Notes under the pieces: generated by a model | What the model was told of the DNA's origin: nothing | Databases searched by the model: none | Seen by the model: only the letters and a program-made list of their open reading frames with translations | Program-made: the position numbers and the translations under genes | Source: Escherichia coli | Lineage (GTDB): Bacteria > Pseudomonadota > Gammaproteobacteria > Enterobacterales > Enterobacteriaceae | Length of the DNA: 64,000 nt | NCBI RefSeq assembly: GCF_003334405.1 | Contig: NZ_QOWM01000004.1 | Strand: one strand, 5' to 3' | Shown here: positions 31,974 through 43,948 of the stretch, piece by piece | Layout of the letters: every line of letters starts with the position of its first letter | How positions within the stretch are numbered: position 1 is the first letter of the stretch

Positions 31974-32696
31974 TTAAGAGACGTGCTGCAAAAATTCCTG
32001 CAAGCGCTGGCTCGGCGGGTTCTTGATCAACACCTGCGGATTGCCATCTTCCGCAATCCGGCCTTTGTCGATAAAGATCAGCCGCGAAGCTACTTTCTCG
32101 GCAAAACCGATTTCGTGGGTCACGATCACCATCGTCATCCCTTCTTCAGCCAGATCCTGCATAACCTTCAGCACTTCATGGCGCAGTTCCGGGTCAAGAG
32201 CGGAAGTCGGTTCATCAAACAGCATCATTTTCGGCTTCACCGCCAGCGCGCGGGCAATCGCCACACGCTGCTGTTGACCACCAGAAAGTTCGGAAGGGTA
32301 GTGATGTGCACGTTCTGCCAGACCGACTTTCGCCAGCAGCTCACGTGCCAGTTTTTCCGCCTCTTCTTTGTTCGCGCCACGCACGCGTAGCGGGCCAAAC
32401 ATGACGTTTTCCAGCGCTGTCAGATGCGGGAAGAGGTAAAACTGCTGGAACACCATACCTGCTTCCTGGCGAATCAGGCGCTCGTCAACTTTCGGATCGT
32501 TAACCTTCAGGCCATCGACAATCAGATCGCCGGAGGTGATTTCTTCCAGTTTGTTGATGCAGCGCAGCAGGGTCGATTTACCGGAACCGGACGGCCCGAT
32601 AATCACCACGACTTCGCCCTGGGCAATGTTCAAATCGATATTGTGCAGCACCTGGGTTGGGCCAAAGTGCTTGGAGACGTTTTTAAATTCAATCAC
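31974..32696 (-). CDS. glnQ: Glutamine ABC transporter ATP-binding protein GlnQ
   Basis: ORF 240 aa; GPSGSGKST Walker A. Confidence 0.95.
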
Positions 32697-33352
32697 AGGA
32701 TTTTCATCCTTCTTTCCAGACGACGCAGAATAAAGCTCAGCACCAGGGTAATAATCAGATAGAACACCGCCACGGCGCTCCAGATCTCAAGGGCGCGGAA
32801 GTTACCGGCAATAATTTCTTGCCCCTGACGGGTCAGTTCCGCCACGCCGATCACAATAAACAGCGAGGTGTCTTTAATGCTGATGATCCACTGGTTACCC
32901 AGCGGCGGCAGCATACGACGCAGTGCCAGCGGTAAAATGACGTAGCGAATGGTTTCCCAACGTGAAAGACCGAGCGCCAGTCCTGCTTCACGAAAACCTT
33001 TGTGGATAGACAGCACCGCACCACGCGTGATTTCCGCAATATACGCGCCGGAGTTGATCATGATGGTGACCACCGCCGCAGTAAATGGGTCGATGCGTAA
33101 GTCGTTAAACGCCATCGGCAGGGCGAAATAAATAAACATCACCTGGACGACGATAGGTGTGCCGCGGATCACTTCAATAAAGACCAGCGCGACGTGGTTG
33201 GCTATCCAACCTCCGAAGGTGCGTGCAAAACCTGCCAGCAATCCGATTACCAGACCGCCTGCCAGACCGAGGACCGAAATCCACAGGGTCATTTTGGCAC
33301 CTTCAATCAGAAGCGGAATGGCAGGCCAGATGGCACTCCAGTCAAACTGCAT
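32693..33352 (-). CDS. glnP: Glutamine ABC transporter permease GlnP
   Basis: ORF 219 aa; ATGA overlap with glnQ. Confidence 0.95.
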
Positions 33353-33490: not shown

Positions 33491-34252
<762 letters not shown>

Positions 34253-34289
34253 CTATCCACGGGACGATCCCCTGCGTGACATTCACATA

Positions 34290-34310
34290 TATGAAAAAAT
34301 CGTGCCAGTT
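34290..34310 (-). promoter_or_regulatory. Sigma-54 promoter glnHp2 (TGGCACG-N5-TTTCA on minus strand)
   Basis: -24 GG/-12 element read on minus strand about 50 nt upstream of glnH ATG. Confidence 0.6.
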
Positions 34311-34380
34311 TTGCAACTCCTTGATTTTTCGAGATGCGGCAAAAACGTGATGCACGATTTATAGGGCAATACCCTGAAGA

Positions 34381-34410
34381 TGCACCATTCTGGGGCACCA
34401 ATCTGGTGCG
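34381..34410 (-). promoter_or_regulatory. Two overlapping NtrC-like enhancer sites (TGCACCA-N3-TGGTGCA type)
   Basis: TGCACCATTCTGGGGCA and GCACCAATCTGGTGC about 100 bp upstream of the sigma-54 promoter. Confidence 0.5.
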
Positions 34411-34640
34411 CTAAAATTGTGCACTCAACACAGTGATTATTTAGCGTAAAACCTGATGAAAAAACAATCTTTATGTAACGATTGTGTGATGATGTGGATA
34501 CAAAAAATTTACTTAATCAGCTGGAGATAGCAGATGGATGCACTAAATAAGTGCGTTGAGGTGGGCTGCAAAACAAAACGGCCTCCTGTCAGGAAGCCGC
34601 TTTTATCGGGTACTAAAGTTCTGCACCATCAGCGATGGAT

Positions 34641-35288
<648 letters not shown>

Positions 35289-43849: not shown

Positions 43850-43948
43850 CCTGATGCGCTACGCTTATCAGGCCTACGCAGTACCTGCAATATATTGAAT
43901 CTGCAGGACTTTGTAGGCCGGATAAGGCGTTAACGCCGCATCAGGCAT
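43850..43948. repeat. REP/BIME unit, third copy
   Basis: Near-identical to 1819..1916 and 18523..18621. Confidence 0.8.

Follow-up and report, generated by a model that had tools for sequence, protein, structure and literature searches.

The nitrogen-regulated sigma-54 promoter glnHp2 upstream of glnHPQ in an Escherichia coli contig, and conservation of its weak -12 element among Enterobacterales

The window (the whole 64 kb stretch of Escherichia coli DNA that was analyzed) carried glnH (33491..34237, minus strand), the gene for the periplasmic glutamine-binding protein and the first in glnHPQ, together with glnP (32693..33352, minus strand) and glnQ (31974..32696, minus strand), all three recognized from their open reading frames and from RefSeq annotation. 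The promoter described in an initial annotation was correctly placed, with the glnH reading frame directly downstream of it. On the other side of the intergenic region, dps ended at 34641 (minus strand), and the hairpin and T-run of its terminator, recognized from sequence (34570..34600, minus strand), delimited the glnH control region on its upstream side. Rfam searches over the intergenic region returned no match at gathering score; a ctRNA-like match at 34568-34603 (26.9 bits against a threshold of 50) was rejected, being merely the dps terminator hairpin. Elsewhere in the window, a molybdenum cofactor riboswitch (RF01055, 103.6 bits) was found at 3145-3289 on the plus strand and is presumably the moaA leader. 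Further Rfam matches, on the minus strand, were naRNA4 (RF02564) and three ES036 (RF02751), at 23821-23891, 1839-1880, 18543-18585 and 43870-43912; such short, recurring matches suggest repeated elements.

The 403-bp dps-glnH intergenic region was 100% identical to positions 848005-848407 of MG1655 (NC_000913.3), and is therefore the published control region containing glnHp1 and glnHp2. A 551-bp region was matched in 5,422 of 5,426 complete E. coli genomes, where the annotation gave glnH and dps. Later papers cite Claverie-Martin and Magasanik (1991) for glnHp2. The sole difference from MG1655 within 4 kb fell outside the control region, at 35188, where the dps strand has G in place of the A of MG1655, in the context TATACTTA(G/A)TCTCG. 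This base follows, by 3 nt, a TATACT hexamer that itself precedes the dps start codon by about 50 nt; judging from its sequence, the hexamer is probably the dps -10 element.

Searching the window for TGGCACNNNNNTTGCA with at most one mismatch returned a single match, TGGCACGATTTTTTCA, at 34292..34307 on the minus strand, 55 nt from the glnH start codon. Compared with TGGCAC-N5-TTGCW, its TGGCAC-N5-TTTCA agreed at 15 of 16 specified positions, with the exact 10-bp GG/GC spacing of sigma-54 -24/-12 elements. The GG was located at 34306/34305 and the -12 dinucleotide at 34294/34293, the latter reading TC in place of the consensus GC, so that the G of GC was replaced by T and the C was retained. 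A T-rich -12 region with TTTCA rather than TTGCA had been claimed from the sequence, and is indeed what TGGCACGATTTTTTCA contains; ChIP studies accept this Enterobacterales variant as a sigma-54 motif. The element itself had been written as TGGCACG-N5-TTTCA, a string with no literal match; the sigma-54 element was real, but the spacing was off by one base in notation, the actual sequence being TGGCACG-N4-TTTCA, which equals TGGCAC-N5-TTTCA and has the canonical -24/-12 spacing.

Primers published by Mao et al. (2007) for the fragment from -289 to +63 of glnHp2 (PMC1865078) ended at window positions 34569 and 34218, and both placed the +1 of the published numbering at 34280 (minus strand), 13 nt past the C of the -12 element. 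In this numbering the GG is at -26/-25 and the TC of the -12 element at -14/-13. As the GG would be expected at -25/-24, the numbering may be off by 1-2 nt, with the real start 1-2 nt further upstream. The glnHp2 transcript has a 43-nt 5' leader (34238..34280, minus strand) with the Shine-Dalgarno sequence AAGGAAA and a conserved stretch, GGGGATCGTCCC, at +5..+28. This part of the leader (34253-34276; CGCAGGGGATCGTCCCGTGGATAG) was near-invariant across Enterobacteriaceae and includes GATC, and the leader element GGGGATCG(T/C)CCC was conserved. A GGGG/CCCC hairpin in the leader was tried as a structured RNA and rejected: the fold was no better than that of shuffled sequences (z = -0.25) and the stem bases never varied, giving no structural evidence.

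Two overlapping NtrC-like palindromes about 100 bp upstream of the core had also been proposed, and both were recovered. The promoter-proximal site, TGCACCATTCTGGGGCA (plus-strand letters; 34381..34397), is centred at -109, has one mismatch to TGCACCANNNTGGTGCA and has conserved half-sites, while the second, GGCACCAATCTGGTGCG (plus-strand letters; 34394..34410), is centred at -122 and has two mismatches. These centres, which follow from the +1 at 34280, agree with those reportedly published for the NtrC sites of glnHp2. The two 17-mers share 4 bp, and their centres are separated by 13 bp; counted from the T of TGGCAC, they lie 82 and 95 bp upstream. The NtrC consensus is TGCACCA-N3-TGGTGCA (PMC8743547). 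An NtrC enhancer usually comprises two or more 17-bp dyads located about 100-150 bp before the transcription start, and the sites at -109 and -122 have this form. A third, weak NtrC-like 17-mer centred at -135 (34407..34423; three mismatches) was rejected as probably a chance match, with no conservation in an alignment of 26 Enterobacteriaceae.

Between the enhancer and the promoter lay an IHF core, AATCAAGGAGTTG (34314..34326, minus strand; -46..-34), a perfect match to WATCAANNNNTTR within a conserved block and in the position expected of an IHF-assisted sigma-54 promoter. Matches to WATCAANNNNTTR numbered 7 in the window against 2.56 expected, so that the motif by itself is weak evidence. 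At 16893-16908, two perfect IHF cores (AATCAAATGATTG and AATCAATCATTTG) overlapped each other on opposite strands. A need for DNA bending at the promoter had been proposed in the initial annotation, which did not include the bending site; the proposal was right, as an IHF requirement is stated for glnHp2 (PMC2709558) and the perfect core lies at 34314..34326.

Upstream of these elements is the sigma-70 promoter glnHp1 (34431..34503, minus strand), known from published work (PMC1865078) and coinciding with conserved blocks. Its degenerate CRP site, ttgTATCCacatcaTCACAcaa (PMC1865078), mapped to 34503..34482; this site is centred at -61.5 of glnHp1, and the glnHp1 start therefore falls near 34431. 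On the glnHp1 transcript, the NtrC sites at 34381-34410 thus fall at about +22 to +50. A sigma-70 consensus scan of 34150-34750 found no match, in line with the very weak binding reported, and glnHp1 could therefore be placed from the published position of the CRP site alone.

For comparison among species, one genome per species was scanned with a degenerate nucleotide pattern encoding GlnH residues 30-40. Of the 120 loci obtained, we kept the 53 from Enterobacterales in which GlnH identity was 75% or more and the upstream sequence was 300 nt or longer. In 48 of these 53, TGGCAY-N5-TTNCW was present no more than 300 nt upstream of the glnH start codon. In a MAFFT footprint of 26 Enterobacteriaceae, the conserved islands comprised the sigma-54 core, the IHF block, the outer NtrC half-sites, the glnHp1 region including the CRP site, leader positions +5..+28 and the Shine-Dalgarno sequence; the T-run flanking the -12 element was likewise conserved. 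The IHF block read AAA(T/A)CAAnnnnTTG in the 26 Enterobacteriaceae. A strict IHF pattern was unmatched in other genera, which have AAACAA and not AATCAA there, with the block still conserved.

Two further islands were conserved. A distal palindrome, CGCACTTATTTAGTGCA on the minus strand (34539..34555), directly after the dps terminator, is a candidate extra NtrC-type site; its centre lies at -267 in glnHp2 numbering and at about -116 relative to glnHp1. Its TGCAC-N7-GTGCA was sharply conserved in every one of the 26 Enterobacteriaceae of the alignment, whereas the spacer and flanks varied; in E. coli it has four mismatches to the NtrC consensus and is not significant alone. A further NtrC-like site (at most three mismatches) was found 120-330 bp upstream of the core in 30 of the 48 core-bearing Enterobacterales loci, set against a chance expectation of about 0.8% per locus that assumes uniform composition and applies to related, non-independent species. 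The other island is a block at -88..-70, centred at -79 (TGCCCTATAAATCGTGCAT; 34350..34368, minus strand), which was conserved in the 26-species alignment and appeared as TTGCAAC-N~6-ATTGTGCAA in other genera. It ends in GTGCA and resembles either an NtrC dyad whose spacer is one base longer or a single GTGCA half-site. In the literature examined on the glnH promoter we found no mention of the -267 palindrome, and no factor was assigned to the -79 block; these two islands are possibly the sole details that are undescribed. From these motifs we tentatively suggest that NtrC-type sites beyond the two described may exist in the glnH control region. If NtrC binds at -267, glnHp1 would lie bracketed between the distal site and the tandem pair, making a repression loop or a third dimer for the hexamer possible; if it binds at -79, the block might act as a low-affinity "governor" site like those of glnAp2.

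Such bracketing, with a distal palindrome kept in all 26 species and a promoter architecture reported to resemble that of glnA very closely (PMC3870243), would also fit an alternative in which the NtrC sites mainly repress glnHp1, by a roadblock or a repression loop as in the glnAp1/glnAp2 pair, and activation of glnHp2 is secondary. However, NtrC repression of glnHp1 is absent from the cited data, whereas NtrC-dependent activation of glnH is documented (PMC1865078, PMC4591121). As repression of glnHp1 and activation of glnHp2 are compatible, repression would be at most an added function, and we consider it unlikely to be the main one.

The departure from consensus at -12 was itself shared among species. 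Among the 48 core-bearing loci the -12 pentamer was TTTCA in 42, TTCCA in 4 and TTGCA in 2 (both Rahnella), and because TTTCA or TTCCA occurred in 46 of 48 loci, the weak -12 is a conserved property and not decay. The view that the T-rich -12 arose by neutral decay and is without regulatory significance could draw on the tolerance of sigma-54 for -12 variation and on the still high position-specific score of glnHp2 (PMC4591121), but T or C occupied that position in all but two loci across many genera, the flanking T-run was conserved, and neutral decay would not keep one non-consensus base order-wide, making this explanation improbable. The sigma-54 PSSM score of the glnHp2 site (10.79) was not low compared with that of glnK (10.5) in the published data (PMC4591121), whereas its sigma-54 ChIP signal was 6 versus 17-22 at prpB, glnK and a site near gltI (PMC4591121). 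The label "weak" is therefore based on the single G-to-T change at -12, the lower ChIP signal and published statements, and not on the PSSM score.

The geometry of the enhancer was conserved as well. In 33 of the 48 loci, two NtrC-like 17-mers were spaced by 13 bp, and the centre of the proximal one preceded the T of TGGCA by 80-83 bp (82 in E. coli). The distance between NtrC sites and core was constant even in Yersinia, despite a very different distance to the start codon: in Yersinia aldovae and Yersinia artesiana the core and NtrC pair were separated from the glnH start codon by 275 and 133 nt, respectively, compared with the usual distance of about 70 nt. As their enhancer-promoter spacing was unchanged (94/81), an insertion in the leader is implied. 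Orthologues of glnH that were 83-87% identical, yet had no TGGCAY-N5-TTNCW within 300 nt upstream, were found at two Pectobacterium loci and in Brenneria, Dickeya and Ca. Pantoea persica; the soft-rot group may have lost sigma-54 control of glnH or replaced it.

Neither motif was significant singly, as about 2.06 sigma-54-like and 3.48 NtrC-like matches (at most three mismatches) are expected by chance per 64 kb window. We evaluated their joint occurrence in 400 simulated first-order Markov sequences with the length and dinucleotide make-up of the window. A sigma-54-like match with an NtrC-like site (at most two mismatches) 40-200 bp upstream occurred in 0 of the 400, and the combination of the two motifs is far beyond chance.

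Binding by sigma-54, NtrC and IHF, and the dependence of transcription on them, are documented in published work. The sigma-54 ChIP-seq site OS06, CTGGCACGATTTTTTCA, is centred at 847290 in NC_000913.2, which is window position 34300 (Bonocora et al. 2015, PMC4591121), and its motif is the core found here; the position of OS06 also fixed the offset between versions 2 and 3 of NC_000913 at 777. An NtrC ChIP-seq peak reported by Brown et al. (2014, PMC4066584) at 847261-847341 falls on window 34271-34351, glnHPQ being peak 3 with 74.8-fold enrichment (PMC4066584), and a gSELEX peak for both RpoN and NtrC at 847362 corresponds to window 34372 (PMC8743547). Overexpression of sigma-54 upregulated glnH (PMC4591121), and the dependence of glnHp2 on phosphorylated NtrC (NtrC-P) is documented (PMC1865078). 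IHF-induced bending is required at glnHp2 (PMC2709558); IHF binding at glnH has been reported from a footprint and from ChIP-qPCR, the primers for which span window 34285-34389 (PMC8407004, PMC2709558). glnHp2 has been called a weak sigma-54 promoter (bioRxiv 10.1101/086108), and it serves as an in vitro sigma-54 template. The reading of the locus as an enhancer-dependent promoter given in the initial annotation is supported by these sigma-54 ChIP-seq, NtrC ChIP-seq and gSELEX, and IHF data. Mapping of transcription starts had been named as the check on whether another promoter alone is used; published primer extension and RT-PCR show that both glnHp1 and glnHp2 are used (PMC1865078).

The view that the motifs are chance matches and that glnH is transcribed solely from sigma-70 glnHp1, for which speak the near-chance frequency of each motif singly in 64 kb and the existence of the upstream promoter (PMC1865078), is already refuted by sigma-54 and NtrC binding at the locus in vivo and in vitro (PMC4591121, PMC4066584, PMC8743547) and by the separation of p1 and p2 transcripts through primer extension and RT-PCR (PMC1865078), alongside the absence of the combination from the simulations and the coincidence of the elements with the conserved islands of the dps-glnH intergenic region. 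We conclude, with a probability of about 0.97, that the sequence at 34290-34410 is the published glnHp2, the nitrogen-regulated sigma-54 promoter of E. coli glnHPQ, activated by NtrC and bent by IHF. The promoter was already known, and the interpretation first placed on its sequence is supported.

E. coli K-12 glnHp2 is the same promoter, with identical sequence, sigma-54 core, overlapping NtrC pair at -109/-122 and IHF site. E. coli glnAp2 is alike in being a sigma-54 promoter activated by NtrC-P, with enhancers about 110-140 bp upstream and a sigma-70/CRP p1 promoter further upstream (PMC1865078, PMC3870243). It differs in having separate strong sites (-108 and -140), no obvious IHF site and good transcription without IHF (PMC2709558), whereas in glnHp2 the sites overlap at a 13-bp spacing, the -12 departs from consensus and IHF is required. 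Klebsiella nifH and Pseudomonas Pu share with glnHp2 a promoter of weak closed complex and a distal enhancer, with an IHF bend between the two (PMC2709558), but have the activators NifA and XylR and belong to other regulons. The glnH promoter of Salmonella Typhimurium (STM0830) has TGGCATGATTTTTTCATT with the same T-rich -12, a sigma-54 ChIP signal and RpoN-dependent glnHPQ, and differs by a C-to-T change at the final base of TGGCAC.

According to the literature, sigma-54 RNA polymerase on TGGCAC-N5-TTTCA forms a closed complex that is unable to open alone. Under nitrogen limitation, phosphorylated NtrC binds the dyads at -109 and -122 and oligomerizes, and a bend imposed by IHF at -46..-34 on the DNA between enhancer and promoter brings the NtrC ATPase into contact with the polymerase, leading to the open complex. 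The T in place of G at -12 is likely to lower occupancy by the closed complex, which in turn would make activation dependent on proper phasing of the bend and on cis-bound NtrC. The weak sigma-70/CRP promoter glnHp1 provides nitrogen-independent expression, reading through the NtrC sites. A possible reason for keeping the weak -12 is selection for this dependence on the bend and on a cis-bound activator, and conservation of the base supports it.

glnHp2 is a textbook weak sigma-54 promoter whose IHF bend restricts activation to its own enhancer, and its rediscovery here brings no novelty. What the present analysis contributes, modestly, is a comparison: an overlapping NtrC pair 13 bp apart at fixed distance and a non-consensus -12 element (T or C for G) have been kept across Enterobacterales, which argues that the weakness of the promoter is selected.
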